In this document: positions 34,340 through 55,571 of the stretch, one piece after another | Layout of the letters: the number at the start of each line of letters is the position of its first letter | How positions within the stretch are numbered: the stretch's first letter is position 1 | Assembly: GCA_965223985.1 (NCBI GenBank) | Contig: OZ245030.1 | Span: forward strand, 3,151,720-3,215,719 | DNA length: 64,000 nt | Source of the DNA: Candidatus Poribacteria bacterium | GTDB taxonomy: Bacteria > Poribacteria > WGA-4E > PCPOR2b | Direction: 5' to 3' | Position numbers and translations under genes: made by a program | The notes under the pieces: model-generated | What the model saw: only the letters and a program-made list of their open reading frames with translations | The model's database searches: none | Told to the model about the DNA's origin: nothing

Positions 34340-34800
34340 CCATCTTGCTCCCCCCTTTTTTAAGGCGGGACTGAGGGGGTAGTAGCGTGTGTCGCGATTC
34401 GGAGCAAGTTTTTGTAGGTTGGGTAGAGTCAACGGCGAAACCCAACGTTTTTGAAACGTCCGTTCAGCCGACCGGTTAACGGCAACACGAGAACGATGGG
34501 AACGACAAAAAGGAACAAAAGGCAATGACACTATACGGGATTTGTATGATTGTGTGGAAACGCGACGCGTTTTGGTGTTCGGGAGGTTTCAAAAACGTTG
34601 GGTTTCGCTCTGTCGAACAATTCTCGCACACAATTAACGAACAGACCGATTCGTTATAATGCACATGTTTCGGCATACCCACTCTACACCAACCTACAAG
34701 AACTACAAAGACTATCGCCTTCGCTATTCGCTCCTTTGATCCTAACCCAACCTACAAGAACTGTTTGTTTGATGCCTTCAGCGCAATACGATAAGCATTA
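34340..34800. repeat. Hairpin repeat plus MITE-like and REP-like elements
   Basis: gggactgagggggt hairpin relative; then cgaaacccaacgtttttgaaacgtccg...ccgggaggtttcaaaaacgttgggtttcgct inverted termini and ctacaccaacctacaagaactacaaagactatcgccttcgctattcgctcctttgatc. Confidence 0.6.
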
Positions 34801-34856: not shown

Positions 34857-35399
34857 TTATTCTTTGCCGATGTCGGGGTTGATGGGGATTCCTGCGCCTG
34901 TGCTCCAGTTCGCGTCGTATACGCCGGCTTGGACGTAGCGGTGGAAGCTGGAGTGTTCCCAATCCTTTGGGGCGGTAACTAAGCCGTGCTTGACGGGATT
35001 ATAGTGGATGTATTCAACGTGGTTGATATAGTCTTGAGTGTCTTTGACCGTGTGTTCCCAGAATCTGCGTTGCCAGAATGCGCGCTCGTTTTTGGTTTTG
35101 CGCGATGTTGAAGTAGCACGTTCAAATGTGGTTTGGCAGTGACGGGTGAAGTAGCTTTTGATTTGCCGCCATCGGGTTGAGAAGTCGTGGTCGTCGTCGG
35201 GCAGCGTCCAGATGGTGTGGAGGTGGTCGGGTAGCAGGACGAAGGCATCAATCTCGATCGGATGGCGTTCCATCGTGGAGCGGAGCGCTTGGCGTAGGAG
35301 TTTTACGTTTTCCGGTTGGCAGAGAAAAGGTTTGCGGTCATGGGTCACGACCGTGAAGAAGTAGGTTGCGCCATTGATTTTTGCACGGCGGTAGTTCAT
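34857..35399 (-). mobile_element. Intact REP-associated tyrosine transposase (RAYT; IS200/TnpA_REP-like), 180 aa
   Basis: MNYRRAKINGATYFFTVVTHDRKPFL..., the HxH motif LLPDHLHTIW and catalytic Tyr region YINHVEYIHYNPVKHGL. The gene is surrounded by REP sequences. Confidence 0.85.
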
Positions 35400-38260: not shown

Positions 38261-38510
38261 TTACAGTCTATAAAAAAAGGGGTGAATTACGAAACAAGAA
38301 TAATACGTTTTATATGAATTGGGGGAGGATGTCAAGGCGGGGGGATTTTATGATTTTTTTATGAAACCGGATTCGGGGGATTGCGTATTTTTGGGTACGA
38401 TGTCAGGTTTAGGATCTCGTTGTCGATTTCGGCAACTGGGTCATGCAGAGAAACCAAGTTTCTGACAAAAACTCGGTTTCCGGTATTCCGTGAAACCTGC
38501 GAAATAAGCA

Positions 38511-38546
38511 TTGACAGATGTTAAAATCTGTTGTACTATACAGCAG
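38511..38546 (+). promoter_or_regulatory. Near-consensus sigma-70 promoter P1 upstream of giant gene 1
   Basis: TTGACA, 17 nt, TACTAT (ttgacagatgttaaaatctgttgtactat). Confidence 0.5.
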
Positions 38547-38601
38547 GTTTCCGCGATGGATGCCGGGGACGAAAACCGCGAAACATGTCGGAAGAAAAGT
38601 C

Positions 38602-38636
38602 TTGACAAATTGCGGAATCTGTTATATTATGGTATT
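38602..38636 (+). promoter_or_regulatory. Near-consensus sigma-70 promoter P2 upstream of giant gene 1
   Basis: TTGACA, 17 nt, TATTAT (ttgacaaattgcggaatctgttatattat); leaves a ~350-nt leader before the ATG at 38990. Confidence 0.5.
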
Positions 38637-38817
38637 GTGTTGCGGCAGGATTGCGCGGCGAATATGTCTCGCGTTCGGTCTGCCGGCACGACTTACGGCT
38701 TCATTCTAGACAGCTATTCTCTAAGGGGATCAACAAATGAAACCCTCCAGAGACACGTTTTGAGTGAGGACAACATTTCAGTCAGTGTGTGGAGGGTGTT
38801 TCAACCCTCTCGAGTGA

Positions 38818-38860
38818 GTCCCGGAACCCGATGTGAGCGGTTTCGGGGTTTTGTTGATTC
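38818..38860 (+). promoter_or_regulatory. Leader hairpin with a motif shared with the giant gene 2 leader, followed by a U-run (possible attenuator)
   Basis: cccggaacccgatgtgagcggtttcgggg then ttttgttg; the motif CCG(A/G)AACCCG(C)ATGTGAGC(C/G)G also occurs at 46416-46436. Confidence 0.35.
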
Positions 38861-38989
38861 TGTTATGATTTAGGAAAGGAACAACTACCAATTATGGATA
38901 GTTCAACTAAGGCTTGCGAATCTGGCAAGCGAAACAAAATCAAATTCAATCCTTCAACATACAAACATGCAAGGAGGAAACATACAGTC

Positions 38990-41900
38990 ATGTTGAGTAG
39001 AATTTCGAAAATGAGTGTTTTCGGTATCGTTGCGCTCATGCTCGTTCTCGGGCTGGCGTCGGACGATGCGCAGGGACGGGATCCGGCAGCTGGAACATAC
39101 GTGGTAACAATGCAAACAGAACCATCTGTGCTGCGCGCAGCAGACACAGCTACGGTGACGTTTACCCTCACTGTCGACCTTCGGGAAAACAAGTCTACTC
39201 AAGACCCAATCCCGGAGGATCAGGCTAACGCTGATACGGCGGAGCGTACGGTCACCATTAACATTCCGGGAGGGTCGACAGGGTGGTCGCCCAACCCGGT
39301 TGCGTTATCCGGAGAGACTGCGGTGGACCCGGGCGAGGTGAGTTTCGCTAAAACTACTGTTATCACCGACAACACTCTCGCGTGGATTTCCGGGTCTAAC
39401 GCACGGAAGCTGAATATCAAAATTGTCGCAGGAATTGACGGTAATGGTGTATATACCATCGTATACGCAGCGGCGACTGTGCCTAACCGCAAAGGCGATA
39501 GCTACAGATTTTTAATTGACAACGCAGACACCAAAGACATTCCGTATAGCGTTGATTACGCGACGAGCGGATCGGGAACGGTCACGATGAGTCCGTACAG
39601 CCCGTTGGACGCGATTGTTGGCGGCGATGCTGATGATAAAAACGCTTGGAACGGCAAATATGTTTTCAATAGCAAGACGGCGTTAAGACCGTTGAAGTTT
39701 ACTTACAAAGCGGCGGGTTCTATGCCAAAGGATTCAACCGTTTCAATAGTTATGACGGGTGGATTCAGCCTTCATGGAAAGAGCAGTTCCGTAATTTCCG
39801 TGAGCGGTTCCGGTTCTCCAGAACTTTCTACTCCCGTAGATACCGTTGTAGTAGATGAAAGTACTACGGTAGTCGCTACAGTGAAGGCAGAGGGCGGGCT
39901 GGGAGCCGGCCAGTCGATAGCCATAACCATTAGGGAGCTTGTGATGCCGGAGGTCGTAGCGGCAGCCGATGCCCCGGATACGGATAATACCATTACAGTG
40001 ACTTCTACGTCGGGTACTACGAACTTTCAAGACGATGCCCGCCCGGTTGCTATTGACAATGCTGCTGGAGATGTCGACAAAGGTTTATTCGAGTTCTACA
40101 CGACTGCAGCGCCCGGGACCGGTGAAATGACGATTAATTCTGGCGGCGACCCGATTCAAAACATGCGCGTCGTGGAAGGCACTGACCTCGGGACATTGGT
40201 ATTTGGAATTACGGGCACGGACGGTATGGGACCGGACGCCAAATTTCAGATTAAGGTTCCGGGCGCCCCTTGGCCCGAGCCTATTAAGGCGTCCGGCACG
40301 ATTGGCGTTGTTGCCGATTCGGAAGCCGCCGGACACACGGCGAATGCGGAGATTGGCACTGGCGGTGCGGCTCGCACACTCAGCGGAAGCCTTACAACTA
40401 ATACACTTCAATCTGGTACAAATAATCCCGAGGCTAATGCAAATTTGAACGATACTGATAACGGCGGGATTACGTACCGAGCCGGCGCGATATCGGTACA
40501 CGGCAAGCATGAGTTCATGCTTTTGACCAGTTCCGGTCCGCACGGCGCCACATTGAAAGAGAGGACCGGCGGGGACGGGGCTGACGCGTACCCCCGGTAC
40601 ATTGAAGTCACCGCGAAGCACGAAAGCGGTACGTTCGTCGTTAGAGAGGGCGGATCGCCGTTAGTGCAGTCAAAACCCGCGAACGAGCACACGCTCCAGT
40701 TAGTCTTTAAAGCCACTGGCTACATGCCGGCAGGGATGGTTGTGTTTAGGTTCCCGGATAGATGGAAAAGTCCTCGCCGTGACGTCGCTCCGCCGTTTGA
40801 AGTGGGAGAGGTGAGGTTTAGCAATAACGCGACGTTTATTGTCAACACCGACGGGACCATCACTGCGACGGGGGACTGGCGAGATGAGGAAATTGTAGTT
40901 ACCTACAGAGGCATGGTTCCGGGCGAGGCGGGTACCCCGCCCGAGTCACACACTTTTACCGTGGATGCATCATCGTTCGGAGGTGATGCTAGCTTCCCGG
41001 CCCCGGCGGCCCGACCGGCTGCTTATTCCCATACGATTGGTCCCAATCTCGCGGCGGATGGCAGCGGCACACTCGCGATTGAGCCGAAGAATGCGAATGC
41101 CGGCGAGACGATTAATTTGAATATAACTTACACAGCCGCGGGCACGATGGAAGATGGATCAGTTGTTGAGGTTACCATCCCCGAAGGCTGGCCTGATCTT
41201 GATGCGCCTGGCACATCAGTCGAGATCGGCGCAGAGGGCATCGTGGCAACCTTGAATGAGTCGAAGAGGACGCTGACCGCTACAACTGTTGATGATATGG
41301 TCACTGATTCCAAACTCGTGTTCAACGTCACGGGCGTTACAGCGCCGGCTGTCGGCAGAGGTTACCAGTTCACCGCGCAATCAAAATCGCACGGAGAACT
41401 AAAGAGCCTTTCGTCAAGGCAAATCTCCGGTGCAGTCATCAATATCAGCAACGTGGCTGCTGGTTCCGCCCTGCTTACGCTAGTGAGGGAAGACGGAACG
41501 ATGGCGGAATCTGCCGAACCCCTGGATTCGTTTGAAACGGCCAAAATCACTTTTACGGTTGGCTTGGCGATGCAACCCGGGGCGGAGGTTAGGGTCACGG
41601 TTCCGGATGGCTGGACGAATGAACCTTTCCAGGACAACGGCATGCCGCGTACGAGCGGTGAGGTTACGCTTGAAGGGAAGGCGGATCTTAGCGTCGAGGG
41701 AAGCGTGCTGATCGCCAAGGCGAACGCTCAGATTAACCCTGGCGAAACAGTGACGTTCACCTACCATAAGCCGACCGCGCCTGAAGGCGAAACAACATCG
41801 TCTTTCGATACACAGGCGTCAATTGTTGAAGGCGGGGGTTTACTGGCGGTTGCAAATCAGCAAACAACTGTGGTCGTTAGAAGCAAGGTCACCGCGTTGA

Positions 41901-44900
41901 CGCTTACCGCCGAATCGGCGACGAGCGTGTTCGTAGGCGATCCGGTCAAACTCACCGTTAGCTCGGATGCGCGTGCTCCGGTTCGCGGTCTTGCGGTAAC
42001 GTTAGCGACCGATCCGGCTGATACAGGGATGTTCTCCCTGACCGAAGACGGGACAGCCACCACTTCGGTGACGATTGAGGATTCGGCTACTACGATGTCC
42101 ACCACGTTTTATTACATAGGCCCAAGTTCCATTGATACGGCATCTGTCGATGTCGAGTTGACGGCGACGGCTATGGTGGATGGCGAAGCCGTTGCATCTG
42201 ATCCCGTGGAAGTTAATGTCAGGTCCACGATTAGCATGCTGCAGGTTAACGGCATGCATGATGATCCGGAACCGGTGGAGGTTGGTGCCGCAATTACGGT
42301 GACAGCGATCGGTAAAGACGGCAGAGCCACCGTAACGGTAACTGACGCTGAAGAAGAGGCGGTCGAGTCACTAACAAATCTTGGACTTGATGTCGACTCC
42401 GATGCTACTGACGTACCGGCAGGTAGTGTTGCTTACAAGCGTAAAATTGAACTGCCGGACGATCTTGCCGAAGGCGATTACACCGTAACCGTGACTATTG
42501 ACGGCGTTTGGTTGCCAATAGAGATCAGTGTGGTGGCAGCCAGAGCACAGGTTACCGAATTGACGCTCACCGCGTCAGCGGATAATTTCTTCGCGGGCGA
42601 GTCAATCACAGTCACTGTTGCATCGGATGCTCGTGCACCCGTTGACGGTCTTGAGGTGACATTGTCGACAGATCCCGCAGATTCGGGAACGTTCTCCGAT
42701 CCCGAAAGCGAGGAGACCCTCAAGGGAGGGATGGTGACGATTGAGGATGCTGCGGATTCAATGTCTGCAGATGTTAATTACACCAACTCTGCGAGGGGGA
42801 CTTTCATGCTGACGGCGACAGCTATGGTTGATGGCGAGGCCGTTACATCTGACCCGTTGGAAGTTACGGTCAACCCCACGATTACCGTTCAGGTTAACGG
42901 CATGGACGCACCGGAAGCGGTGTTGCCCGGCGCCACAATTAGTGTGACGGCGAGCGGTAAAGCAGGCGGAGGCACCGTAATGGTAACCGACGCTGAAGGC
43001 GAAGCAGTCGAGTCATTAACAGGGCTTGGACTTAATGTCGACGCCGATGCTGCTGACGTTCCCGAAGGCAGCGTTGCCTACATGCGCGACATTGAACTGC
43101 CCGCGGATATTGCTGACGGCACTTACACAGTTACCGTGACAATTGGCAGCGAGTCGGTGCCAGTGATGTTGGAGGTCATGACACCCACAGAACCGGTCAC
43201 CGCTATCGCGATTGTACCGGATCCGACCAGCGTGTTTATCGGCGAGGACATTGCCGTCTCCGTGACGCTGTGGAGCGGTGCCGAAGAAGGGGCTGCCTCG
43301 GCAGCTATGGTCATCAACCTGACGGATGGCGAAGCCGGCGGTAGTTTCACCGATACCGAAGGCAATGCTATCACTTCGGTCACTATAGCCGTTGGAGGTT
43401 TCGACGCGTCTGCGAAATATAGCAATGCCAGCAGAGGCGAAATCACGCTGACCGCGACGGCAGCCGATGAGGCGTTGGAACTTGAGCCGGCAACCGCCGA
43501 TGTCACGGTCAAGCCCTCGATTTACAATTTTGAGGTTAACGGCACGGACGAGCTAGGCCCGCTGACGGCTGGCGTCACAATTACTGTGTCGGCGACCGGA
43601 AAAGAAGGTAAAGCCACCGTAACGGTAACTGACGCGGACGGCGAAGGGGTTGTGCCATCGAAAGGGCTTACAGGACTTGATGAAGAGCCCGATGAAGAGG
43701 GCAACGTTGATTACACGCGTAAATTTGACCTACCGGTCGTTCTTGCCGATGGCATTTACACAGTTACGGTTACCATTGCCGGCGAGACTGCCGCAATGGC
43801 AATCGAAATCATAAACGACCAATCAAAACCGGCGTTGAGCAACCAGAAGGTATTGCCCGACACGGTAGCGAGCGGCAGTGTGATTACGCTTAGAATCGAC
43901 GTGAGTTCTAATGTGCCTAATCCCGAGTTGTCAGTGATGGCGGATGTCAGCGAGATTGATGCCGACCAAGCCGCTGTTCAGTTGACGAAACTGCCCGGGA
44001 CGGAGAGCACCTATGCCAACATCTACGTGGTCAAAAACAGCGACCCGCAAGACGATGGCGAGAAGACCATCACGTTCATGGCGACTGATAGGATTGGCGG
44101 CGCAAGCGAAATGACTGTGTCCACGTCCTTGAAGAACGACGTTACGCCTCCGGTGCTGAGCGATCCGACCGCTATGCCTTCACCAGTGGTGAACGGTATG
44201 GACGTTACCATTTCGGTTAGCAGTGAATCCGGTCTCACGGTCACGGCAGATGCTTCCGAAATCGGCGGCGGCATGGTGACGCTGACCGAGGGTACGGTTG
44301 ACGACGGTATGGATGCCAACGGCAACGGTAATGGTATGGATGCCAACGGCAACGGTAATGGCATGGATGCCAACGGCAACGGTAATGGTATGGATGCCAA
44401 CGGCAACGGTAATGGCATGGATGCCAACGGTAACGGTAATGGCATGGATGAAGATATGGTCGGCACGGGCATGTATAGCAGCGACCCGATCACAGTCGCC
44501 GTTACTGAAGGTGGCGATCAGACCATCACCGTCAAGGCGACCGATGCCTCTGGTAACGAGGCTACCATAGACGTAACCGTCACGGTTGAGGTGCACGAGG
44601 TGACAAGCGTTACTTTCGTTCGCACGGGCGATACGGTTACGGTAACCACGATGGGCACCGCTGGATTGAAAGCGGAGTTCAGCGTCTTCAATGAAGCTAT
44701 GAAGATTATCGGTGAGAAGGCGATGACGGAATCGGATGATGGCGGAAGCTATACAGGCAGTTTCATCATTGTTGTAGACGCCCATCCCGCTGGTGAGTAT
44801 TGGATTTCTAGCAGCGTGGGTACTGCTGCCAGTATGACCGCAGAAGGTGCACTCACGATCGACCACGGGGCGCATTTCACCCTGTCAATCGGCGCGGGTA

Positions 44901-46102
44901 CGCATATAATCCATATCCCGTTAGATGTTAAGCAGATTAACGGCGAAGATGCGTTGATTGACACCGTCGGCGACCTATACGATGCGCTCGGCGAAGCGGT
45001 CAACTACATCATTACGGTCGGCGACGACGGTGGATGGAAGACTTACCTCGGCGATATGAGCGCGGGCACCGCAGCGGACGCGGCAATCGGCGACGATACC
45101 GGTTTGATTGTGGTGATGTCCGACGCTAAGACGCTTGAACTCGTTGGCGATGCGCTAGGTACCGCCGGCGCTTCACAAATTAACATTGACGTGGGGAACA
45201 ACCTCGTCGGTGTACCGCTTGATCCGGTGGTGGATATGATGATTAGCGCCGCGCTGGTCGAAGGTGTTAGTTCAATCTCGGTCTCCAAAGCCGATGGAAT
45301 GGGATTCCACACGATTAGGGAACCCGGCGACGACGGCGACGGTCCTGTCATAGGCGGCGTCGGCTATCTAGTTTCCTACATTGGAGCGGAACCAGCCAGC
45401 ATCCCGATATTCGGTTCAGCATGGGAGAACGACGGATCGGTTTCGGCAGCTCCTGCAATCGCCTTCAGCGGTTCGCAGACGCCGGTGCTGTATGTTGAGG
45501 GCGGCGTTATGGACGAGTTCGACATGTTGTCACGAGTTCCTGAACTCCGTGTCACTGTAAAGAACCTGTCTACAGGCGCTTCGCTCGACACCGTTCTCGG
45601 AACGGAGCAGTCTGCGACAGCGTACAGCGGTACGTTTGTTGAATTGAGCCGCCACGCAGCGAAGGCTGGCGATGTGCTGGAGATAGTAGCGCATTCACCG
45701 AACCCGTACGTTGGTGTTCGACCGGTTCAGCAGATTGTTGTTAGCGCGGAAGAGGTGTTGACGAGCCGTATCAGCTTGCCCGACCTGGAAGTCTACGAGA
45801 TTCCGTCGGAGAGCGAGCTGTTGGCTAACTACCCGAATCCGTTTAACCCTGAAACGTGGATTCCGTACCGGTTAGCGAAAGCTGCCGAAGTGACGTTGGA
45901 TATTTATGACACCAACGGACGCTTGGTACGGACCATTGATATCGGCTTCAAACCAGCCGCTGTGTACGAATCACGTGCATCAGCGATTTACTGGGATGGC
46001 CGCAACAACTACGGTGAACGCGTTGCCAGTGGCACGTACTTCTATCACTTAACTGCGGGCGATGATTATGCATCAACTCGCAGAATGGTGATCCTGAAGT
46101 AA
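38990..46102 (+). CDS. Giant secreted repeat protein (2370 aa) with Ig-like repeat modules and a T9SS-type C-terminal sorting domain
   Basis: AAGGAGG RBS then the ATG at 38990 (12-nt spacing) and signal peptide MLSRISKMSVFGIVALMLVLGLA. Four ~210-aa internal repeat modules (TALTLTAESATSVFVGDPVKLTVSSDARAPV... / TELTLTASADNFFAGESITVTVASDARAPV...). C-terminal CTD NYPNPFNPETWIPYRL...LDIYDTNGRLVRTI...WDGRNNYGERVASGTYFYHLTAG...MVILK. Confidence 0.85.
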   Translation: MLSRISKMSVFGIVALMLVLGLASDDAQGRDPAAGTYVVTMQTEPSVLRAADTATVTFTLTVDLRENKSTQDPIPEDQANADTAERTVTINIPGGSTGWSPNPVALSGETAVDPGEVSFAKTTVITDNTLAWISGSNARKLNIKIVAGIDGNGVYTIVYAAATVPNRKGDSYRFLIDNADTKDIPYSVDYATSGSGTVTMSPYSPLDAIVGGDADDKNAWNGKYVFNSKTALRPLKFTYKAAGSMPKDSTVSIVMTGGFSLHGKSSSVISVSGSGSPELSTPVDTVVVDESTTVVATVKAEGGLGAGQSIAITIRELVMPEVVAAADAPDTDNTITVTSTSGTTNFQDDARPVAIDNAAGDVDKGLFEFYTTAAPGTGEMTINSGGDPIQNMRVVEGTDLGTLVFGITGTDGMGPDAKFQIKVPGAPWPEPIKASGTIGVVADSEAAGHTANAEIGTGGAARTLSGSLTTNTLQSGTNNPEANANLNDTDNGGITYRAGAISVHGKHEFMLLTSSGPHGATLKERTGGDGADAYPRYIEVTAKHESGTFVVREGGSPLVQSKPANEHTLQLVFKATGYMPAGMVVFRFPDRWKSPRRDVAPPFEVGEVRFSNNATFIVNTDGTITATGDWRDEEIVVTYRGMVPGEAGTPPESHTFTVDASSFGGDASFPAPAARPAAYSHTIGPNLAADGSGTLAIEPKNANAGETINLNITYTAAGTMEDGSVVEVTIPEGWPDLDAPGTSVEIGAEGIVATLNESKRTLTATTVDDMVTDSKLVFNVTGVTAPAVGRGYQFTAQSKSHGELKSLSSRQISGAVINISNVAAGSALLTLVREDGTMAESAEPLDSFETAKITFTVGLAMQPGAEVRVTVPDGWTNEPFQDNGMPRTSGEVTLEGKADLSVEGSVLIAKANAQINPGETVTFTYHKPTAPEGETTSSFDTQASIVEGGGLLAVANQQTTVVVRSKVTALTLTAESATSVFVGDPVKLTVSSDARAPVRGLAVTLATDPADTGMFSLTEDGTATTSVTIEDSATTMSTTFYYIGPSSIDTASVDVELTATAMVDGEAVASDPVEVNVRSTISMLQVNGMHDDPEPVEVGAAITVTAIGKDGRATVTVTDAEEEAVESLTNLGLDVDSDATDVPAGSVAYKRKIELPDDLAEGDYTVTVTIDGVWLPIEISVVAARAQVTELTLTASADNFFAGESITVTVASDARAPVDGLEVTLSTDPADSGTFSDPESEETLKGGMVTIEDAADSMSADVNYTNSARGTFMLTATAMVDGEAVTSDPLEVTVNPTITVQVNGMDAPEAVLPGATISVTASGKAGGGTVMVTDAEGEAVESLTGLGLNVDADAADVPEGSVAYMRDIELPADIADGTYTVTVTIGSESVPVMLEVMTPTEPVTAIAIVPDPTSVFIGEDIAVSVTLWSGAEEGAASAAMVINLTDGEAGGSFTDTEGNAITSVTIAVGGFDASAKYSNASRGEITLTATAADEALELEPATADVTVKPSIYNFEVNGTDELGPLTAGVTITVSATGKEGKATVTVTDADGEGVVPSKGLTGLDEEPDEEGNVDYTRKFDLPVVLADGIYTVTVTIAGETAAMAIEIINDQSKPALSNQKVLPDTVASGSVITLRIDVSSNVPNPELSVMADVSEIDADQAAVQLTKLPGTESTYANIYVVKNSDPQDDGEKTITFMATDRIGGASEMTVSTSLKNDVTPPVLSDPTAMPSPVVNGMDVTISVSSESGLTVTADASEIGGGMVTLTEGTVDDGMDANGNGNGMDANGNGNGMDANGNGNGMDANGNGNGMDANGNGNGMDEDMVGTGMYSSDPITVAVTEGGDQTITVKATDASGNEATIDVTVTVEVHEVTSVTFVRTGDTVTVTTMGTAGLKAEFSVFNEAMKIIGEKAMTESDDGGSYTGSFIIVVDAHPAGEYWISSSVGTAASMTAEGALTIDHGAHFTLSIGAGTHIIHIPLDVKQINGEDALIDTVGDLYDALGEAVNYIITVGDDGGWKTYLGDMSAGTAADAAIGDDTGLIVVMSDAKTLELVGDALGTAGASQINIDVGNNLVGVPLDPVVDMMISAALVEGVSSISVSKADGMGFHTIREPGDDGDGPVIGGVGYLVSYIGAEPASIPIFGSAWENDGSVSAAPAIAFSGSQTPVLYVEGGVMDEFDMLSRVPELRVTVKNLSTGASLDTVLGTEQSATAYSGTFVELSRHAAKAGDVLEIVAHSPNPYVGVRPVQQIVVSAEEVLTSRISLPDLEVYEIPSESELLANYPNPFNPETWIPYRLAKAAEVTLDIYDTNGRLVRTIDIGFKPAAVYESRASAIYWDGRNNYGERVASGTYFYHLTAGDDYASTRRMVILK
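44306..44440 (+). repeat. Five near-identical tandem copies of a 27-bp unit (third-position T/C alternation) inside giant gene 1, encoding (MDANGNGNG)x5
   Basis: gg(t/c)atggatgccaacggcaacggtaat x5, in frame. Confidence 0.8.
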
Positions 46103-46116: not shown

Positions 46117-46165
46117 TTCACCCTTTAGCTGCTAGGCGGGCTCTGTACTGCTTAGCAGCTAATTT
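46117..46165 (+). terminator. Candidate intrinsic terminator of giant gene 1
   Basis: agctgctag-(15 nt)-cttagcagct stem followed by aattttttgtttt. Confidence 0.5.
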
Positions 46166-46187
46166 TTTGTTTTAGTTTGAAATCACC

Positions 46188-46215
46188 CCCCTCAGTCCCC
46201 CCTTGGTAAGGGGGG
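46188..46215. repeat. Copy of the CCCCCTTGGTAAGGGGGG hairpin repeat
   Basis: cccctcagtccccccttggtaaggggggagg; same family as the 26820-27015 array. Confidence 0.5.
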
Positions 46216-46269: not shown

Positions 46270-46305
46270 CTTTCAAACTGGTTGTTACTTGTGTTATAAT
46301 AGATA
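46270..46305 (+). promoter_or_regulatory. Candidate extended -10 promoter for giant gene 2
   Basis: tttcaaa ... TGtTATAAT (ctggttgttacttgtgttataatag). Confidence 0.4.
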
Positions 46306-46469
46306 TGTTTCGACGGCTTTATAAAACATAATTGGTCTGGTGTAAAATTTTTTGTTGTTTGTTTCATGAATTTGCTTTATGAAGTGTTTTGATTGGTCTT
46401 GGTCGGGCTCACTTTCCGAAACCCGCATGTGAGCCGAATTGATGAGCGAAATTTTTGGGAGGTTGAATA

Positions 46470-49400
46470 GTGTTTAACATCATGAGTAAGGGAAAACTCG
46501 TTTGGTTTCTGATTTTGGTTACACTTGCGAGTGGTTTGATGATGAGCGTAGCGCAGTCGGTCCACGCCCAATCGGTGAGCTTGTTCATATTGAATGGTAC
46601 GCTCACGGATGCGGATGGCGTTGCGCTGGTAGGGTACACCGTGGAGGCGCCAATTGCTGAAGAAAGCACATTTGGGAGCGGCGTATCTATAACAGACGAA
46701 CAAGGAAATTACTCGATCGAGTATAACGACTTGAGCGGAAGAGTCAGCGTTGGCGACTCAATTGAGGTAATTATCAAAGACCCTGACGGGAACGTTGTAG
46801 GGGAAACGTCGTATACCGTTACTTCTGCGGATATATCGCCTCGAATTGGACGGGCGACGCACGATATCGCAATTCAGATGTCAGGGCTGACGCTTGATTT
46901 GATTAACGTTCAGTTGCCTGCGGATGGCGAATCGACGGCGGAAATAACCGTTTCGATCGAGTCGGGCGATGGGCCGGTCATCGGTGACACGGTGACAATA
47001 ACGGCTGACATGGGCAGCGTCGGCGAGGTTACGGATAACGGCGACGGGACGTATACGGCTGTGTATACGGCGCCCGCGTTGGTTATTAATGAACCGGCGA
47101 CGGATACGATTACGGTGAGTTCTGACACAACAGGCGATTCGGTAACCGCGGTAATAACGTTGGAGCCGGTTCCGACGGACATTAGAGTATCGGTCGAGCC
47201 GAGCGCATTTATAGCGGGCTCGGGCGAGACTGGCGCCGTTTCGATTACAGTGAACCGCGGCGGCAACGCTGTGGTGGACGCAGACATTTCATTGGTAGTG
47301 AGACGCGCGGATGGCGGTGCCGACAGCGGCGCGGCTACTGATGTGACGAACAACGGTGACGGCACGTACAGCGCGACATTTACGGCTCCGAACACCGCGG
47401 GACAGATTGATTTTTCCGCAACGGACGCAGTTTCCGGCGCGAGCGGGATGGCGTCAGTTAATGTGAAGGCGGGACCTGCGGCGGCAATTTCGGTGACGGC
47501 AGCGCCCACGTCAGTTTCGAGCAACGGACGCGCAGTAATCACTGCAGCGGTCGCGGATGCATCGGGTAACGGTGTCGGCGGATTGACGCTTAGCCGTACG
47601 GCAGAGAGCGGCACGGTCGGCGAATTCAGCGAAGGGTCTACAGTTGGGAGTTACAGCGCGGCATATACCGCGGGTACGGTTGAGGCGGAAGGAGGGGATA
47701 CCGTAACCGTTAGCGTCGACGACCTATCCGGTCAGGTGACGATTAACCTTACACCGGTTCCGCCGAAGGCAGTAGAAATTCTTGTAATCACAGGCACAGT
47801 GAACAAGCAAGACGGTACGGGACCCGTCAGCGGGGTGAATGTAGAGGTTACAGTCGGCGACATGACGCAGCCACCGGCGCAGACGGACAGCAATGGAAAC
47901 TACACCGTCACCTTCTTCACTCCGGGCGGCGTTGCGGCACGCGAAGGCGAAAGCGTTACTGTTGTTGTCACGGACGACGCCGGCGAGGAACGCGGACGGG
48001 ACGAATCGGTATTGACGCGAGAGGAGCTAGGCGAGGGGAATTCCGCGGATATTGAGCGCAATGTGAATACCGATATTTTGGCGAGAACCACGTCGTTGGT
48101 GGTGACCGGTTCGGTGTTCCGCGAAGAGAGCGAGGTGCCGATTGACGACGTGTTTGAGATTACAGTGATGAACACGACGCGCGGGACGGAAATGTCCGGT
48201 ATGACGGACGAGAACGGAATGTATGTTCTCACCTTCTTCGGCACAGACGTTGTTGCTGAGACGGGAGACGAGATAGTAGTGACGGCTTCGAGAGAGGGAA
48301 GCGAATGGAGCAGTCCCCCGCATTCGTTGTCTTCGGAAGACGTTGAAGCGGGCAGAGCGATGGTGAACGTACCGACCGACATCAAGGCGTCAGCCCTAGC
48401 GCTTGTGGTGACGGGTAAGGTTCTCTTTGACGACGGGACCATTGCAGTTGGCGCCGGTGTGACCGTAACTTCGATTAACGATGGACGCGGACTGGAAGCG
48501 ACAGGCGAGACTAATGCAGATGGGATGTATTCCGTGACCTTCTTTACAGGTGATGTCGTTGCGGAAACTGGAGACGTGATTGTCGTCACAGCCGTGCACG
48601 ACGGCGACGCGGTCGGCAGCACGGAACGTACGCTCTCATCGGCTGAAGTGGACGCACAGCGCGCGGAAGGCGTGGATGTGGTTACCAGTATAAAAGCGTC
48701 AACGACGACGTTAGCGGTGACTGGTACGGCGTACTACGAAGGCAGCATGATCCCCGTCGGCGGCGGACAAACCGTGACTGTCGTGAACAACATGAACGGG
48801 ATGGAGTCCACCGGGACAACGGAGGAAGACGGTACGTTTGTCGTTACGCTCATAGCCATTGAGGGGGTTGCCGCGGAGACGGGCGACACGCTGACCATCA
48901 CGGTGACAAGCGAAGCGGACGGCAGCGGCAGCATTGAACATACGTTATCGGCGATGCAGATTGATGCGCAGCGCGCTATGGTTGATGTTCCGACGAACAT
49001 TAAGGCGACCTCATCAACGTTCGTTGTGTCAGGTACGGCATACCTTGAAGATGGGGTAAGCGGTGCGCCCCACGATTTGACCGTTAAAGTCATGAACGAA
49101 ACGCAGGGGATCAATGCGGAAGGCGTAACCGTTCCGGGCGGCGGATACATTGTGACGTTCTTGGAGACCGATGCAGCGGCTGTGAAGACTGCGGATGAGT
49201 TGACATTCGACGTGCTTGTAATGGCGGCAGACGAGACGCCCGTCGGGGAAACTTCCGTTACGCTCTCATCGGCTGATGTGGTTGCGCAGCGGATTGACGG
49301 CATAGATATCACGACGAGCCTCAGGGCTGACCCGACCAATGAGTTTGTCGTTTACGGTACGGTTCGAGATCCGTCGGGCAACATCGTTGGGGCGGGAGTA

Positions 49401-52400
49401 AAGGTGCGCGTCACCCTCGGCGAGCAGGCTGCGAGGGAACAGGAAACCGAAGCAGACGGTTCGTATCAGGAGACCTTCTTCATGCCGGGCGAAACGGATG
49501 CGAGCGTTTACGACACCGTGGTAATTCAGGCGGTCGACCGCAGCACCGGCGATTCGGCGTTTGAATCCATGCAGTTGGCTTCGCACCACGTGTTGGCGAA
49601 GCGTCTTATGTTTAACGTGATGCTGGTTCCGGACGATGAACCCCCGGTCGCCGTGGCAGCAGTGAGCCAGCGGTTCCTTGACACCGAAGAAGTCTCGACG
49701 TTCGACGCGAGCGGTTCAACCGACAACGTCTTTATTGACACGTACGTATGGGATTACGGAGACGGCACGAGCGGCAGCGGCGCGAAAACGACGCACGCTT
49801 ACGACCGAGCGGGACTGTATGTTGTAACGCTTACGGTTACCGACCTTGCCCGAAACGCGACTACGGTCTCACGCGAAATCTTTGTGAGCACGGTACGGCT
49901 CGGCGGAATTTCAATCAACACCCGGCACGCGCGAGAGGTTCTTGACCAAATCATCGGCTTGGCAATCGCTAAGACCGACCTTGCTCAGCAGATGGGAACG
50001 GAAGCGCTCTTGCAGATGATGCGCGCTAATCCGGCGATTCAAGCGGCTGTGGCTGAAGCGATTGGCGGGGCATTACCGCCCGGCTTAATACCTATGCAGC
50101 TACTCAGGGAAAATCTGCCGCTGATTTTCGAGCAGTACGAAAACATTGACTTGGAAAACTTCGGCAACGCAGTGACCGCACGTGTCGACGCGAGCGGCGG
50201 TATCCTGGGATCAGCAACTCCGGGATTCGGCAGAGTCGTGACCGGCGAGAAGTTGGACCTCTACCTTGCGACACCGCGTGCAGATGTTGGCAGTGTCACG
50301 TTTAGGTTCGACGAAGCTACAACCGATGCGGACGAGGTCATCGACAGTCTGCCGCACACGTTCCAGTTGGAAGAGGAGCAAGCGATTCTACTGCTGCCCT
50401 CATGGCCCGGCGTGCGGGATGGAATGGACGGCGTGTTCTCAACGGTGACGTTGATGTTGGCGTCTGAAGAGTTGCCGTCGGCATACCACAATCTAATTTC
50501 GAGAAATGCCTGGTCATACCGCGAAACGAGCGATTATCAGGCTGCGTCCATGAGTCCAAGGACGATTAACGGAAAGATTGTATGGGATGTCCAAGCGGAC
50601 ATTGAACCCGGAAAGATATATTACTACTATTACGCAGTCGAACTCGCGTATCCCGTCACACTGAATTTGGGCGAGGGTCAGGAGAGCATGGAACTCTCGC
50701 AGTACGCATTGCCAGACCCGCGCAACCTTCAAATTCAGGATCGCGGCATAGCTGAGGCGGTATTCACACCCGAGCTTCAGGAAGCGATTGCACCGCTGCT
50801 GAACCCGATACTTGCGGGCATTATCAGTGGACAAGCTGTTACGTTCGAGGATGTTATCGCGAGCGTGACGCCCGAAGCGTGGGTGAACCTGTTGGGCGCA
50901 GCATTGAATTCAGCAACTCCGCTTCTTGAAGAGATTTCAATGACGATGGATACGCAGATGATTTCCGTGTTCACCGTTCCGCTGGTGAACGAAGCGCAGT
51001 CGCTCTGGCACACGAGTATTGATTTATCAGTGTTCCCGGACGGCGTTCACACAATTGATGCGAACGCGTTTGATTCGCTTGGAATTCAGATAGATAACCG
51101 ACCGGTTTTCGGTAAGACCTTCACGTTGGATCGGACTGCACCAGTTTACGATGTGTCGGCTGCACCGGCTCAGAATTCGTCGATGTATATGCGCGACGAC
51201 GGCGTATTGATTGCGACAGGATTGCCGCCCGCTGGCGAGGGCAGCCCGATGGCGACGCTTCAACTGATGTCAAGCCCGAACGGCGATGTGAGCGATGCGG
51301 CTGAAGGGTTGTACCAGATTATTCGGCACAGCGATGACGCCGTTGAACAAGCGTCACAAACTTGGGTCAACATTTTCGCGAGCGAATTGGCACCGATGTT
51401 CCAAGGGCTAACGCCTGAAGACATCACCGCATTCTTGGTTACGTTCCCGAATCTAGCGACGTTGAACGCGCCTCTGAGTTTGGACGCGCCTGGGATTGAG
51501 ACGTTCCTTCCGGAACAGATGGAGATGTTGATTCGCGGTGCTAACAGCCAGCCCGAACTGATTGTCGGAGAATACGGGCTGCGTTTCATCGCACGGGATT
51601 CCGTATTTAATATGTCAACGGATACCGCGCCGATACGGTTGAACATTGTTCCACCGGATGCGGATACCGCGATGGTTGTGCGGATATCGCTCGGCGATTG
51701 TAACGGCGACGGCGACTCAGACGACCTGTATGAGACAGGCGCTCCTGCGGACATGATTCTGTTCTCGGACACGCCGAATGTGGTGTTGACCGCAGAGATT
51801 ATGAAACAGGTTCACCCGATAACCTCAATCCTGTTCCAGTATAGGATGGGGGATGAAGGCGAATGGATGGATGTCGGTACACTTGACGCAGATATGGTCG
51901 CCGGCGCTGCTGTCGGCTCACAGTATGATGCGGCTTGGAGCATTGACAACTTGGGCGCGATGATTCAGGCAGGTATGCCGGTAATGGTTCGCGCGGTTGT
52001 CACGAATGCACTCTCCATTTCTGATACTGAGGCTGGCGAAGCTGCAATAGCGGTGAAAGACCATCCGTGCCCGATCGAAACTGAAGTTCACGACCTTGCA
52101 CACAGCGTTACCGACCGTAACCCCGACAGCAACGCGCCGCTGGGCGCGATTATGCTTCAGGCAATCACCCGCGAGCTAACCTCACCTCCTTCGATGAGCG
52201 TAGTTTTTGAGGCGCGCCGTATGCAAGGTGAGGAGTGGATGTCAGTCGGCGAAACGGCGATAGCGGATAGCGTTGTCGAAGAGTCTATCACCGATGCACT
52301 TGAAGAGGTGTTGGAGGAGGTTATCGACGGCGAGCAGACCGCAGTGTTAGTTCCGACGCGGCGTGTATGGTCGTTTGAACTTGATAGCACAACACTAGAA

Positions 52401-55400
52401 GACACAATTGCGGTGGGAGACCCCGCTGAACGCGACGTGACGTTGGACGAGAACCCTTACGTGCTTCGTGCAGCCGCAGTTGACGAGAATGGCACACGAT
52501 ACGAATCGGTGGAGGCGCTCTCGCAGAGTTTCTCGGTCGATAACATTGACGATGTACCGCCGCTCACAGGAACGGCGATTCTTCAAGTTGCGGATGCCGC
52601 AGGCGTTATTGAGGCAATCGAGAGCATCTTTACCGTCGGCGGTATCGTTGACGAGAGCGTAGATGCGCCAGTTGCGATGGTGATGTCAATGCCAATTGCG
52701 GATCCGAACACGTACAGTCGGGTCGATTTGCTGATTAACCGCCGCAATGACGACGGCAGCCTGGGAGACTCTGTGGTTGAGACGGCGTTCGAGATGGGTG
52801 AGGAGAATTACACCACCACGGCTGATGTCTCAACGCTAGAGAACGGCGCGTATCTCTTCCAAGCACTGGCAATGGACGAGGTTGGGAATCAAGAGGTACG
52901 AGATCTCGTGTTAGCGATTTCGGTTGATGTTGCGAACTTCATTCCGCCGCCCGATATCGACCTCAATGGTCAGACGGTTGAGGCAGTCACGGAAGCGTAT
53001 CCGGACGGGTTCCCAATCGCTCGGACGTACGAGCTCGCTGTGACTGGCATTGCGCTTAACGCAGGAGACATCGACGTTCTCGTTGATGGGCGTTCCGCGA
53101 ACGAATTGGGCGCACTCACGGTTACTACGGTTGAGGAAGGGGCGTCGAGCACGTTCGGGCTGGCGATTGACACTACGCTGCTTGAGGAGGGCTTGCACGC
53201 ACTGGATCTACAGGTTACGAAACGCAACGGCAGCATCACGTTTGTTCTGGCGCCGCTGTTTGTAGATAACATCGCGCCCGAGTTGGCAGTGGCTTCGCCG
53301 ATAGCGAACGACGAGGTAAGCGCGTTGCCTTCGATTCATGCAGTATATAATGACGGCGCTGGTGCGGGCATTGAGCTCTCGACAGTGTTGATGAGCATGG
53401 TTCGACTGACGCCGCCGGATATGTCGGCGGTCGAGATTGATGTGAGCCAAGTTATGACAGATTTGACCGACCTGGTCCATACCCGCCGCGATATGCTGCC
53501 GGCTGGCGTATATCGGGTGAGCGTAACGGTGTCCGATATCGTAGACAACGTTAGCAACATGTCGGTTGACTTTACGGTCGTTACGACGTTGCCGTCAGTC
53601 TCAATCCTGTCACCGATGCCGGGTCAAATCCTTGACGTATCGTCGCCGTACATCAGCGCGGTTTACACAGGCATAGGCGCAACCATCACATCGTTCACGC
53701 TTGACGGAGCTGAAGTCGATGATGCGACGATGAGCGACAATCGTTTGGAGTATACGCCTGACGCCTTGGCGGATGGCGACCATACGGCAGCGATTGCAAT
53801 CACGGATGACGAAGGCAATACGATGAGCGACACTGTGAAATTCACGGTAAGGACAGCAGATACGACGCCGCCGCTGATAACGGAGGCGAGTCCGCAAGGA
53901 GTTGTGAAATCTGCGTCCGCTACGCTGTCCGTCGCAGCCTCCGATGAAGAATCCGGGATTGGTAGCGTGTCATACGCCATTGATGACGGTGCAGCGGTTG
54001 ACGGAACGACTCGAAACGTTAGCGGTTTGGCTCCAGGAACTCACACCGTTGCTGCGGTTGTGACAAATGGCGCCGGTCTGTCGAGCACGTTCAATTGGAC
54101 GTTCACCGTTGAATTGGATACGACGCCACCTGTGATTTCGACTGTTGCGCCGCAGGGCGTTATCAAAGAAGCCTCTACCACGGTTTCAGCCGCGGTCGGC
54201 GATGAACAATCGAGTGTCACGCGAGTCACCATGTCGGTAGACGGTGCTGCGGCTAGAACCGCGTCACTACGGGATGGGCGTGTAAGCCGCGTGGTGAGCG
54301 GACTTACCCCTGGAACGCACAATATTACCGTTTCTGCGACGAGCGCTGGCGGTACTGCGACGCATACTTGGAGATTTACGGTTGAACTGGATACCACACC
54401 GCCTGTGATTACCCGTGCTAGACCGCAAGGCGTTATCACGTCAACTTCTGTAACAATTGCGGCAGTGGTGACAGATGAGGAATCTAATGTCACAAGTGTT
54501 ACGATTGCCCTTGACGGCGGCAGAGCTACAGACGTGACACCAGCAGCGAACGGCCCGGTGAACCGTAGGGTGACAGACCTGAATCCCGGTCTGCACGGCA
54601 TAGAACTCGTCGCAACAAGCGCTGGCGGCACCGCGACGCATACTTGGACGTTTAATGTTGACTTGGATACGACCCCGCCGGAGGTTTCGAGTACATCTCC
54701 GCACGGCATTGTGCGCGTGGAACAGCCGCAAATCTCTGTGGCAGCGAGCGATGACCGCGGCGGTATCCTTGCAATCGACATCACCCTTAAAGACAGCGAT
54801 GGTAAAGAGCTCAGCGGTCGAACCGCAGCAAGTTCTGACACAACTTCAGCGACCTTTACACCGTCGGGACGCCTGACGGGGGGGACGTACTCAGTTGATG
54901 CCACCGTGAAAGATAGAAGTCAGAATACGGCATCCGCGAGTTGGAGTTTTACCGTCGAGTTCGATACGGTGCCACCCAGCATCACGGTTGTCGCGCCGCA
55001 GGGCGAGTCCCGGATCGGCGAGGAACGCAGACCGATAATTACGGCGAGCTACACTGATAATGCAGCCGGTGTTGACGCGGATTCCGTGGTACTGATGCTT
55101 GACGGAAACCCGGTCGTTCCGACGGCAGTGTCCACGAGTCAGGTAGTTTACACGCCGCCCGCGGACCTCGATTTCGGTCGGCACACCGTTCGGTTGGAGG
55201 TCTCCGACCTCGCAGCGCCGAACGTGAATACGGCGATGCACGAATGGAGTTTCGTCCTTGAGGACGGTAAGGGACCTGTGTTCCGCGGCGTGCTGCGGAA
55301 TTACCCGAATCCGTTCAAGGATAAAACGAGCGTTTCCTTCACCCTTGCACGTGAATCGACAGTATCCATCGAGATTTACGACATCACGGGTCGGCTTGTC

Positions 55401-55571
55401 AGGGTCTTGGCGCAAGACGAGGTTCGAGAAGCCGGTGGTAATGAATTTCCGTGGGATGGGAAGACATCGACAGGCGAGGTGCTGGCTCGCGGCGTTTACT
55501 TCGGTCAGATAATGGTGACTAGCGAACCGACGCCAGAGTTTATTGTGGTGAGAATGGCGCTGTTGCGCTAG
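46470..55571 (+). CDS. Giant secreted repeat protein (3033 aa): Big-1-like, Cna-B/transthyretin-like, PKD and Ig-like repeats, T9SS-type C-terminal sorting domain
   Basis: GGGAGG RBS then GTG at 46470 and signal peptide. Invasin-like Ig repeats (ADGESTAEITVSIESGDG...DNGDGTYTAVYTAP). About 8 repeats of GTV..DG..V.GV.V.V..........TD.NG.Y.VTFF. A PKD domain (FDASGSTDNVFIDTYVWDYGDGTSGSG...YVVTLTVTD). Six ~95-aa Ig-like repeats (DTTPPVI...PQGVI...). C-terminal CTD NYPNPFKDKTSVSFTL...IEIYDITGRLVRVL...WDGKTSTGEVLARGVYFGQI. Confidence 0.85.
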   Translation: MFNIMSKGKLVWFLILVTLASGLMMSVAQSVHAQSVSLFILNGTLTDADGVALVGYTVEAPIAEESTFGSGVSITDEQGNYSIEYNDLSGRVSVGDSIEVIIKDPDGNVVGETSYTVTSADISPRIGRATHDIAIQMSGLTLDLINVQLPADGESTAEITVSIESGDGPVIGDTVTITADMGSVGEVTDNGDGTYTAVYTAPALVINEPATDTITVSSDTTGDSVTAVITLEPVPTDIRVSVEPSAFIAGSGETGAVSITVNRGGNAVVDADISLVVRRADGGADSGAATDVTNNGDGTYSATFTAPNTAGQIDFSATDAVSGASGMASVNVKAGPAAAISVTAAPTSVSSNGRAVITAAVADASGNGVGGLTLSRTAESGTVGEFSEGSTVGSYSAAYTAGTVEAEGGDTVTVSVDDLSGQVTINLTPVPPKAVEILVITGTVNKQDGTGPVSGVNVEVTVGDMTQPPAQTDSNGNYTVTFFTPGGVAAREGESVTVVVTDDAGEERGRDESVLTREELGEGNSADIERNVNTDILARTTSLVVTGSVFREESEVPIDDVFEITVMNTTRGTEMSGMTDENGMYVLTFFGTDVVAETGDEIVVTASREGSEWSSPPHSLSSEDVEAGRAMVNVPTDIKASALALVVTGKVLFDDGTIAVGAGVTVTSINDGRGLEATGETNADGMYSVTFFTGDVVAETGDVIVVTAVHDGDAVGSTERTLSSAEVDAQRAEGVDVVTSIKASTTTLAVTGTAYYEGSMIPVGGGQTVTVVNNMNGMESTGTTEEDGTFVVTLIAIEGVAAETGDTLTITVTSEADGSGSIEHTLSAMQIDAQRAMVDVPTNIKATSSTFVVSGTAYLEDGVSGAPHDLTVKVMNETQGINAEGVTVPGGGYIVTFLETDAAAVKTADELTFDVLVMAADETPVGETSVTLSSADVVAQRIDGIDITTSLRADPTNEFVVYGTVRDPSGNIVGAGVKVRVTLGEQAAREQETEADGSYQETFFMPGETDASVYDTVVIQAVDRSTGDSAFESMQLASHHVLAKRLMFNVMLVPDDEPPVAVAAVSQRFLDTEEVSTFDASGSTDNVFIDTYVWDYGDGTSGSGAKTTHAYDRAGLYVVTLTVTDLARNATTVSREIFVSTVRLGGISINTRHAREVLDQIIGLAIAKTDLAQQMGTEALLQMMRANPAIQAAVAEAIGGALPPGLIPMQLLRENLPLIFEQYENIDLENFGNAVTARVDASGGILGSATPGFGRVVTGEKLDLYLATPRADVGSVTFRFDEATTDADEVIDSLPHTFQLEEEQAILLLPSWPGVRDGMDGVFSTVTLMLASEELPSAYHNLISRNAWSYRETSDYQAASMSPRTINGKIVWDVQADIEPGKIYYYYYAVELAYPVTLNLGEGQESMELSQYALPDPRNLQIQDRGIAEAVFTPELQEAIAPLLNPILAGIISGQAVTFEDVIASVTPEAWVNLLGAALNSATPLLEEISMTMDTQMISVFTVPLVNEAQSLWHTSIDLSVFPDGVHTIDANAFDSLGIQIDNRPVFGKTFTLDRTAPVYDVSAAPAQNSSMYMRDDGVLIATGLPPAGEGSPMATLQLMSSPNGDVSDAAEGLYQIIRHSDDAVEQASQTWVNIFASELAPMFQGLTPEDITAFLVTFPNLATLNAPLSLDAPGIETFLPEQMEMLIRGANSQPELIVGEYGLRFIARDSVFNMSTDTAPIRLNIVPPDADTAMVVRISLGDCNGDGDSDDLYETGAPADMILFSDTPNVVLTAEIMKQVHPITSILFQYRMGDEGEWMDVGTLDADMVAGAAVGSQYDAAWSIDNLGAMIQAGMPVMVRAVVTNALSISDTEAGEAAIAVKDHPCPIETEVHDLAHSVTDRNPDSNAPLGAIMLQAITRELTSPPSMSVVFEARRMQGEEWMSVGETAIADSVVEESITDALEEVLEEVIDGEQTAVLVPTRRVWSFELDSTTLEDTIAVGDPAERDVTLDENPYVLRAAAVDENGTRYESVEALSQSFSVDNIDDVPPLTGTAILQVADAAGVIEAIESIFTVGGIVDESVDAPVAMVMSMPIADPNTYSRVDLLINRRNDDGSLGDSVVETAFEMGEENYTTTADVSTLENGAYLFQALAMDEVGNQEVRDLVLAISVDVANFIPPPDIDLNGQTVEAVTEAYPDGFPIARTYELAVTGIALNAGDIDVLVDGRSANELGALTVTTVEEGASSTFGLAIDTTLLEEGLHALDLQVTKRNGSITFVLAPLFVDNIAPELAVASPIANDEVSALPSIHAVYNDGAGAGIELSTVLMSMVRLTPPDMSAVEIDVSQVMTDLTDLVHTRRDMLPAGVYRVSVTVSDIVDNVSNMSVDFTVVTTLPSVSILSPMPGQILDVSSPYISAVYTGIGATITSFTLDGAEVDDATMSDNRLEYTPDALADGDHTAAIAITDDEGNTMSDTVKFTVRTADTTPPLITEASPQGVVKSASATLSVAASDEESGIGSVSYAIDDGAAVDGTTRNVSGLAPGTHTVAAVVTNGAGLSSTFNWTFTVELDTTPPVISTVAPQGVIKEASTTVSAAVGDEQSSVTRVTMSVDGAAARTASLRDGRVSRVVSGLTPGTHNITVSATSAGGTATHTWRFTVELDTTPPVITRARPQGVITSTSVTIAAVVTDEESNVTSVTIALDGGRATDVTPAANGPVNRRVTDLNPGLHGIELVATSAGGTATHTWTFNVDLDTTPPEVSSTSPHGIVRVEQPQISVAASDDRGGILAIDITLKDSDGKELSGRTAASSDTTSATFTPSGRLTGGTYSVDATVKDRSQNTASASWSFTVEFDTVPPSITVVAPQGESRIGEERRPIITASYTDNAAGVDADSVVLMLDGNPVVPTAVSTSQVVYTPPADLDFGRHTVRLEVSDLAAPNVNTAMHEWSFVLEDGKGPVFRGVLRNYPNPFKDKTSVSFTLARESTVSIEIYDITGRLVRVLAQDEVREAGGNEFPWDGKTSTGEVLARGVYFGQIMVTSEPTPEFIVVRMALLR

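Follow-up and report, generated by a model that had tools for sequence, protein, structure and literature searches.

Tandem promoters and a folded leader before a giant secreted-protein gene of Candidatus Poribacteria, and a short string shared with the leader of its neighbour

Two adjacent giant genes and their transcription units

Poribacteria are uncultivated, and to our knowledge nothing is known of how they control very large secreted proteins. Here we analysed a 64-kb stretch of DNA from a Candidatus Poribacteria bacterium (the window), which holds two adjacent giant genes, with emphasis on the control region of giant gene 1 and on a short string that its 5' leader shares with that of giant gene 2. 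An earlier note on this DNA had described two promoters and a long leader upstream of giant gene 1, and had proposed that the string is one cis-RNA element co-regulating both genes. The encoded proteins would both be cargo of the type-IX-secretion kind (Table 1). In giant protein 1, Pfam matches were obtained for Por_Secre_tail, FlgD_ig and BslA, and in giant protein 2 for Invasin_D3, PKD, Big_13 and Por_Secre_tail. Since giant gene 1 is followed by a strong terminator and giant gene 2 has a conserved promoter of its own, the two belong to separate transcription units. Conservation among relatives starts exactly at the gene 2 promoter, and the intergenic DNA upstream of it is variable and filled with repeats.

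For comparison we used loci of related bacteria. L001, L003, L006, L007 and L065 are close strains that were retrieved via protein look-ups, and L018 (gene 1 leader) and L010 (gene 2 leader) are the orthologous loci on the Candidatus Poribacteria chromosome OZ240245.1 (4.92 Mb). Protein look-ups also yielded L066, an intermediate relative with a gene-2 N-terminus that is 61% identical, and the distant relatives L048, L049, L050, L051 and L067, with 39–50% protein identity. No record matched giant protein 1 in an exact look-up of its sequence, and a scan of JGI metagenomes with the gene-2 N-terminus did not find relatives.

Table 1. Coordinates of the features of the giant-gene locus (positions in the window)
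Feature	Position	Strand	Remarks
Palindrome GAAACCAAGTTTC-N5-AAAACTCGGTTTC	38450..38480	.	about 30 nt upstream of P1; single occurrence in the window
Promoter P1 (predicted)	38511..38539	+	TTGACA (38511-38516), 17-nt spacer, TACTAT; 10/12 to consensus
Promoter P2 (predicted)	38602..38630	+	TTGACA (38602-38607), 17-nt spacer, TATTAT; 11/12 to consensus
5' leader of giant gene 1, from P2	38637..38989	+	strongly structured
Terminator-like hairpin and U-tract UUUUGUUG	38820..38856	+	stem 38820-38829 / 38837-38847, loop GAUGUGA
Motif copy 1, CCGGAACCCGATGTGAGCGG	38821..38840	+	with flanks
Conserved 3' module of leader 1	38883..38930	+	two small hairpins, then a CA-rich tract
Alternative in-frame ATG	38894..38896	+	start codon according to gene callers in L006 and L007
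Shine-Dalgarno sequence AAGGAGG (38971-38977) and preferred start ATG (38990)	38971..38992	+	
Giant gene 1 (2370 aa)	38990..46102	+	signal peptide; type-IX-secretion C-terminal sorting domain
Intrinsic terminator of giant gene 1 (predicted)	46125..46172	+	15-bp stem, then TTTTTTGTTT; conserved in L001 and L003
Predicted promoter of giant gene 2	46272..46300	+	TTCAAA, 17-nt spacer, extended -10 element TGTTATAAT
Leader-2 hairpin GGCUCAC-N16-GUGAGCC	46406..46435	+	holds motif copy 2
Motif copy 2	46416..46436	+	with flanks, inside the leader-2 hairpin
Giant gene 2 (3033 aa)	46470..55571	+	GGGAGG ribosome-binding site; start GTG 46470 or ATG 46482

Tandem promoters upstream of giant gene 1

Two promoter sequences, P1 and P2, precede giant gene 1. 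Both have hexamers near TTGACA/TATAAT at a distance within the 16–18-nt spacer range of sigma-70 promoters, and they were the top two consensus matches in a 12-kb scan. Across the whole window, two sites matching at least 11 of the 12 consensus positions were observed against 0.53 expected, and a same-strand tandem pair no more than 150 bp apart occurred in 3.5% of shuffled windows. The pair of TTGACA-N17-TAYTAT promoters about 90 bp apart that had been reported earlier is thus present, with a start-to-start distance of 91 bp, and it is conserved in related genomes.

When the related loci are aligned, it becomes clear that the promoter cores are selectively conserved over their flanks, the pattern expected of sigma-70-type promoters. 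The P1 core is unchanged in L007 and L018 and has a single spacer change in L006, with both flanks diverged; the P2 core is unchanged in L006 and L007 and has a single spacer change in L018. Compared with these 0–1 changes, the P1–P2 interval of the same three loci carries 11–13 mismatches and a 24-nt indel, and the DNA 5' of P1 is about 50% diverged in L018. P1 and P2 are therefore well supported, on sequence grounds, as predicted sigma-70-type promoters.

The two are direct repeats of 34 nt with 71% identity. Since the distant relatives possess a single promoter copy, which is P2-like in L049 and L067 and P1-like in L050, the pair appears to be a recent duplication of a conserved promoter. 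A metagenome scan for the P1/P2 pattern gave 13 matches that lie 5' of unrelated genes (e.g. a toxin-antitoxin pair and a tRNA), which marks it as a generic strong promoter type and not as the signature of a regulon.

Two further observations concern promoter sequences. The promoter spacer harbours an inverted repeat, ACAGAT-N6-ATCTGT, which is perfect in P1 (38514-38531) and has one mismatch in P2 (38605-38622); its half-sites are conserved in L050 with a variable centre, and the 13 metagenomic promoters of unrelated genes show the same layout. A second tandem promoter-like pair, each member matching at least 10 of 12 consensus positions, is located on the minus strand at 28108 and 28225.

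The leader of giant gene 1

The leader runs for about 352 nt from P2, or about 443 nt from P1, to the ATG at 38990, in agreement with the length of about 350 nt given in the earlier note, and it is conserved in related genomes. From P2 onward its predicted minimum free energy is -115.8 kcal/mol, with a z-score of -4.28 relative to shuffled sequences. Rfam yielded no match at gathering score in the window, and only chance-level matches at E <= 10 in either leader. Leader 1 together with the signal peptide is 94–99% identical in L006, L007 and L018. Exactly at the end of the signal peptide conservation drops sharply: the mature protein is about 41–67% identical or escapes detection by blastn.

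Among close strains, giant protein 1 is hypervariable in its mature part (window positions 39060-44050 compared with L006, L007 and L018). In L018 there is no blastn similarity over about 5 kb, and the amino-acid identity in L007 is 41%; the leader, signal peptide and C-terminal sorting region are 80–99% identical in the same strains. Judged from these alignments, a surface protein seems to have undergone either cassette-type replacement or very rapid diversification.

Beyond the close strains, similarity is confined to the end of the leader. Its 3' part of about 100 nt is about 75% identical to L049; over the 188–220 nt between the P2 promoter and the 3' module, a segment that includes the motif hairpin described below, similarity to L049 is undetectable. 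The central leader is hypervariable even between L049 and L067. In the 3' module, the first hairpin, AACUACC-N6-GGAUAGUU (38883-38903), is followed by a second one, GCUUGC-N7-GCAAGC (38912-38930). L049 and L067 show one compensatory G-C to U-A change and one C-G to U-G change; as the compensatory change, which falls in the second hairpin, is a single evolutionary event, it lends weak support to the fold. In 278 kb of Poribacteria sequence, a covariance model of the module (R2) matched gene-1 leaders and nothing else. As far as sequence comparison can tell, the long-term constraint in leader 1 lies in the last ~100 nt 5' of the ribosome-binding site.

Where translation starts matters for this part of the leader. 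The AGGAGG sequence is invariant in all relatives, L050 included, and the L050 gene begins directly 3' of its AGGAGG without an N-terminal extension; for these reasons we prefer ATG 38990. A start at ATG 38894 would shorten leader 1 to about 256 nt. None of the six lineages interrupts the frame that begins at this codon, and L049 carries an indel of 3 nt that leaves it intact. Since gene callers use this ATG and the frame is open, the 3' module could partly encode a 32-residue basic N-terminal extension. The gene calls of L006 and L007 include an open reading frame (ORF) at 38511-38873, which we rejected as coding sequence: it suffers a 1-nt deletion in L018 and its translation is featureless.

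A string shared by the two leaders

As stated earlier, both giant-gene leaders contain the string CCGRAACCCG(C)ATGTGAGCSG. Its core, AACCCG(N0-2)ATGTGAGC, occurs exactly twice in the 64 kb, at 38825-38838 and 46420-46434, each time on the plus strand, with 0 occurrences expected. No further copy was found in the window when two mismatches were allowed, nor was a sequence complementary to the motif elsewhere in it. In OZ240245.1 the exact motif likewise occurs in two copies, one per giant-gene leader and both in sense orientation. A genome-scale scan with the exact pattern, using one genome per species, gave 40 matches, about the estimated chance number, and OZ240245.1 was the sole genome matched twice.

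The statistical weight of the resemblance depends on how it is scored. Local alignment of leader against leader, evaluated with dinucleotide shuffles, gave p = 0.26 to 0.005 according to the scoring scheme and the spans compared, so that the similarity of the leaders is at best marginally above chance.

The fate of the motif in relatives is instructive. Copy 1 has undergone two changes in close strains, G38824A in L018 (a G-U pair becomes A-U) and C38838T in L007 (the bulged base); these are the only substitutions seen in the leader-1 hairpin, and both are structure-neutral. In leader 2 of L066 both stem arms are kept and five substitutions fall in the loop, i.e. in the motif core, which indicates that the stem rather than the shared string is the constrained feature. 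Among the distant relatives, L048 and L067 retain only CCCGCATCT in leader 2 and L049–L051 nothing of the motif, and the motif was not found in leader 1 of L049, L050 or L067. It is hence not conserved in the orthologous leaders of diverged relatives.

Several other identities of the motif were considered and rejected. If GGAACC or GAAACC is taken as the -35 element of an extracytoplasmic function (ECF) sigma promoter, the two copies share no -10 element at 16–17 nt. The sequence ATGTGA could be read as a start-stop mini-ORF, and neither copy has a ribosome-binding site upstream. The motif is also unrelated to the published binding sequence of P. gingivalis PorX (PMC8265659).

Two hairpins of different architecture

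The motif had been described as embedded in hairpins. Both copies indeed lie in predicted hairpins, yet these are not homologous. The motif of leader 1 supplies the 5' arm and the loop of CCCGGAACC/GGUUUCGGG, and that of leader 2 the loop and the 3' arm of GGCUCAC/GUGAGCC. On the modelled folds, the two copies therefore do not share the structural context expected of a common cis-RNA element.

The leader-1 hairpin (38820-38847) has a GC-rich stem of 9–10 bp with a one-base bulge and a 7-nt loop. Its free energy is -15.6 to -16.1 kcal/mol, with a shuffle z-score of -2.7, and the U-tract UUUUGUUG at 38849-38856 lies directly 3' of it. This combination of a stable GC-rich hairpin and an immediate U-tract is the anatomy of an intrinsic terminator, which bears out the earlier observation of a hairpin followed by a U-run; the shape resembles that of gene 1's own terminator. 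A simple terminator scanner missed the hairpin owing to the one-base bulge. In L001, L003, L006 and L010 the block of the leader-2 hairpin shows no change, and the 5' part of leader 2 in L010 has 17 mismatches and 23 indel columns.

Palindromes around the control region

The palindrome upstream of P1 is probably a terminator, an insulator or an operator-type hairpin. The same palindrome, which has 13-bp arms (GAAACCGAGTTTT-N5-7-AAAACTCGGTTTC), recurs beside the promoters or within the leaders of the giant genes in L006 (9530-9560), L007, L048 (twice, 4533-4564 and 6177-6208), L049 (255-286), L050 (7898-7947) and L051 (218-246). The pentamer GAAAC/GTTTC is the most enriched 5-mer at 38250-38990, with 13 occurrences against 2.7 expected, a number that 0 of 2000 shuffles reached; neither leader 2 nor the leaders of the distant relatives showed such enrichment.

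Comparison with known regulatory systems

The region fits kinds of elements that are already known: sigma-70 promoters in tandem, a leader that is long and structured, and possibly an attenuator of the terminator type. Tandem sigma-70 promoters are familiar from the rrn P1/P2-type arrangements of E. coli. The pair of giant gene 1 is similar in that two near-consensus hexamer pairs, each with a 17-nt spacer, lie on one strand at a distance of about 90 bp and would serve one transcript; it differs in being a recent 34-nt direct-repeat duplication that is single-copy in distant relatives. Intrinsic (Rho-independent) attenuators of 5' leaders are matched in the stem, the loop and the immediate U-rich tract of the leader-1 hairpin and in its location within a long leader, about 140 nt 5' of the start codon. 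Unlike such attenuators, leader 1 has no above-chance antiterminator and no Rfam match to a sensor domain, and the hairpin is not kept in more distant orthologous leaders.

Among elements that act in long leaders, ops/JUMPstart elements are recognised by RfaH, and the NusG paralogues UpxY and LoaP have leader requirements. Like them, the motif is short, non-palindromic, orientation-specific and of very low copy number, and it resides in the long leaders of very long transcription units, the products of which are secreted or lie at the surface. In contrast, its sequence is dissimilar to ops (GGCGGTAGnnTG) and more distant relatives do not conserve it. A Pfam scan of the larger ORFs of the window revealed neither a NusG nor a KOW domain, so that an ops-like role is without gene-context support.

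The earlier note had itself named an origin in dispersed repetitive extragenic palindromic (REP) sequences as the outcome that would speak against a shared element. This was checked and is not what we found: with only two exact copies in the related 4.92-Mb chromosome, the motif is no dispersed repeat, and it lacks the many genome-wide copies in both orientations that are typical of REP sequences. The window does resemble a setting with REP elements, bacterial interspersed mosaic elements (BIMEs) and IS200-like (Y1) transposases, as it holds repeat families and a Y1_Tnp gene; the motif, however, is located outside these repeat families.

Weighing the explanations

The explanation to which we incline, with modest confidence, is that giant gene 1 has duplicated promoters and a folded leader with a lineage-specific leaky terminator, and that the shared string is young or coincidental. 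The locally duplicated sigma-70-type promoters would drive a leader that is strongly folded and measures about 350 nt, or about 256 nt with ATG 38894 as the start codon. The GC-rich hairpin and U-tract in mid-leader would most likely be a leaky intrinsic terminator, so that less transcription reads through into the 7-kb gene, and the last ~100 nt before the ribosome-binding site, with its two small hairpins and CA-rich tract, would be under long-term constraint. The 19–21-nt string common to both leaders is then most likely a young or coincidental similarity of unrelated hairpins and probably not a common regulatory element. Several observations weigh against this explanation. The homologous leaders of L049 and L067 lack the leader-1 hairpin, and attenuation, if real, is thus not ancestral. 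The search for an antiterminator pairing found none better than chance: of 1000 shuffles of the upstream sequence, 128 equalled or surpassed the energy of the best upstream partner of the motif, 38667-38690 (-21.7 kcal/mol). The invariance of the leader-2 block amid a variable neighbourhood suggests constraint there, which the stem could explain. Two sense-oriented copies, both in the leaders of the only two giant genes, would look like a specific recognition site. Finally, the 3' module may be partly coding if ATG 38894 is used.

The proposal of one shared RNA or DNA cis-element, through which a single trans-acting factor co-regulates both cargo genes and which in gene 1 is also part of an attenuator, has to be measured against the same data. 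It would account for two exact sense copies in giant-gene leaders and no other in 4.92 Mb, for the retention of both copies throughout the close clade, with an invariant leader-2 block between variable flanks, and for the p of about 0.005–0.02 that some scoring schemes return. Other schemes, however, give 0.07–0.26, the hairpins are non-homologous, and L066 alters five bases of the motif core while keeping the stem. Relatives at 40–50% protein identity lack the motif in both leaders, it has no palindromic symmetry for a dimeric DNA binder, and the window holds no sequence complementary to it. We therefore regard the proposal as unlikely, and co-regulation of the two giant genes by the motif as weakly supported at best. 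A narrower idea, that the motif recruits to both leaders an antitermination factor of the ops-like kind, or some other regulator that binds RNA or DNA, seems to us very improbable; if it were true, the factor would carry RNA polymerase past the leader-1 terminator to the end of the 7–9-kb transcripts, a lineage-specific switch for hypervariable surface proteins of Poribacteria. The segment from P2 to the U-tract (~38638-38856, ~215 nt) might instead be a separate gene for a structured small RNA, with giant gene 1 served by read-through or by a weak downstream promoter such as the extended -10-like TGTTATGAT at 38861-38869. In favour of such a gene are the strong promoter, the high degree of structure of the segment and its terminator-like end, as well as a third partial copy of the promoter's 3' half directly after the hairpin (38851-38866, 81% identical to the P2 spacer). 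The 5' and central parts of the segment are nonetheless unconserved in L049, L067 and L050, the putative downstream promoter has a poor -35 element and is not conserved in L049, and Rfam gave no match, so we hold this to be improbable. A similarly small chance is given to the idea that the motif copies are decayed GAAACC...GGTTTC palindromic elements of intergenic DNA, which would make the resemblance one of repeat ancestry and not of regulation. The pentamer enrichment upstream of gene 1, the presence of the palindrome near giant-gene promoters or leaders in seven related loci, its place within leader 2 of L050 and L051 at a motif-like position and the GGAACC/GGTTTC arms of the leader-1 hairpin all point this way. 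Against it stand the covariance model of the palindrome (R1), which misses both motif hairpins even at E <= 10, the mere two exact copies genome-wide and the absence of a GGTTTC arm from leader 2.

If we return to the favoured explanation, i.e. duplicated promoters, a folded leader and a young or coincidental string, the analysis provides a concrete promoter and leader map for two giant secreted-protein genes of Poribacteria. Selection would have kept the core of the promoter, the signal peptide and the module of 100 nt that precedes the ribosome-binding site, and not the shared motif. Were transcription to end at the leader-1 hairpin, the costly gene of 7 kb would have a simple dosage brake; that would be useful to know and adds no new principle.

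Repeats and neighbouring genes

Directly upstream of the gene-1 control region, at 35624-38250, lies an array of internally palindromic repeat units of about 400 bp. The units have terminal inverted repeats TGTAGGTTGGGTAGAGCGGGTATG, periods of 394–414 bp and 95–98% identity, and every one of them contains GTTATAATgcaCATGTTTCGG, which resembles the -10/start region of the gene-2 promoter (46293-46312). The array is adjoined by an IS200-like Y1 transposase gene at 34857-35399 on the minus strand (Pfam Y1_Tnp, E = 1.9e-8), the product of which may be responsible for the spread of the palindromic repeats. A further repeat, a small GC-rich hairpin (CCCCTCAGTCCCCCCTTGGTAAGGGGGGAGG), lies at 46178-46216, 26807-26843 and 34348-34379. 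In the spacer between giant genes 1 and 2 the number and kind of such elements differ among L001, L003, L065 and L066.

Directly 3' of giant gene 2, at 55672-56610 on the plus strand, a gene encodes a 312-aa protein for which only a weak UPF0164 match was obtained. Its amino-acid sequence is identical in four contigs and the gene is syntenic in L051 and L066; the protein may be a partner of the giant cargo protein. Paralogous DUF6785/DUF6784 proteins (E ~1e-145) are encoded at 22049-23995 and 60913-62847, and a related 1.58-Mb contig (L001) has two adjacent downstream copies.

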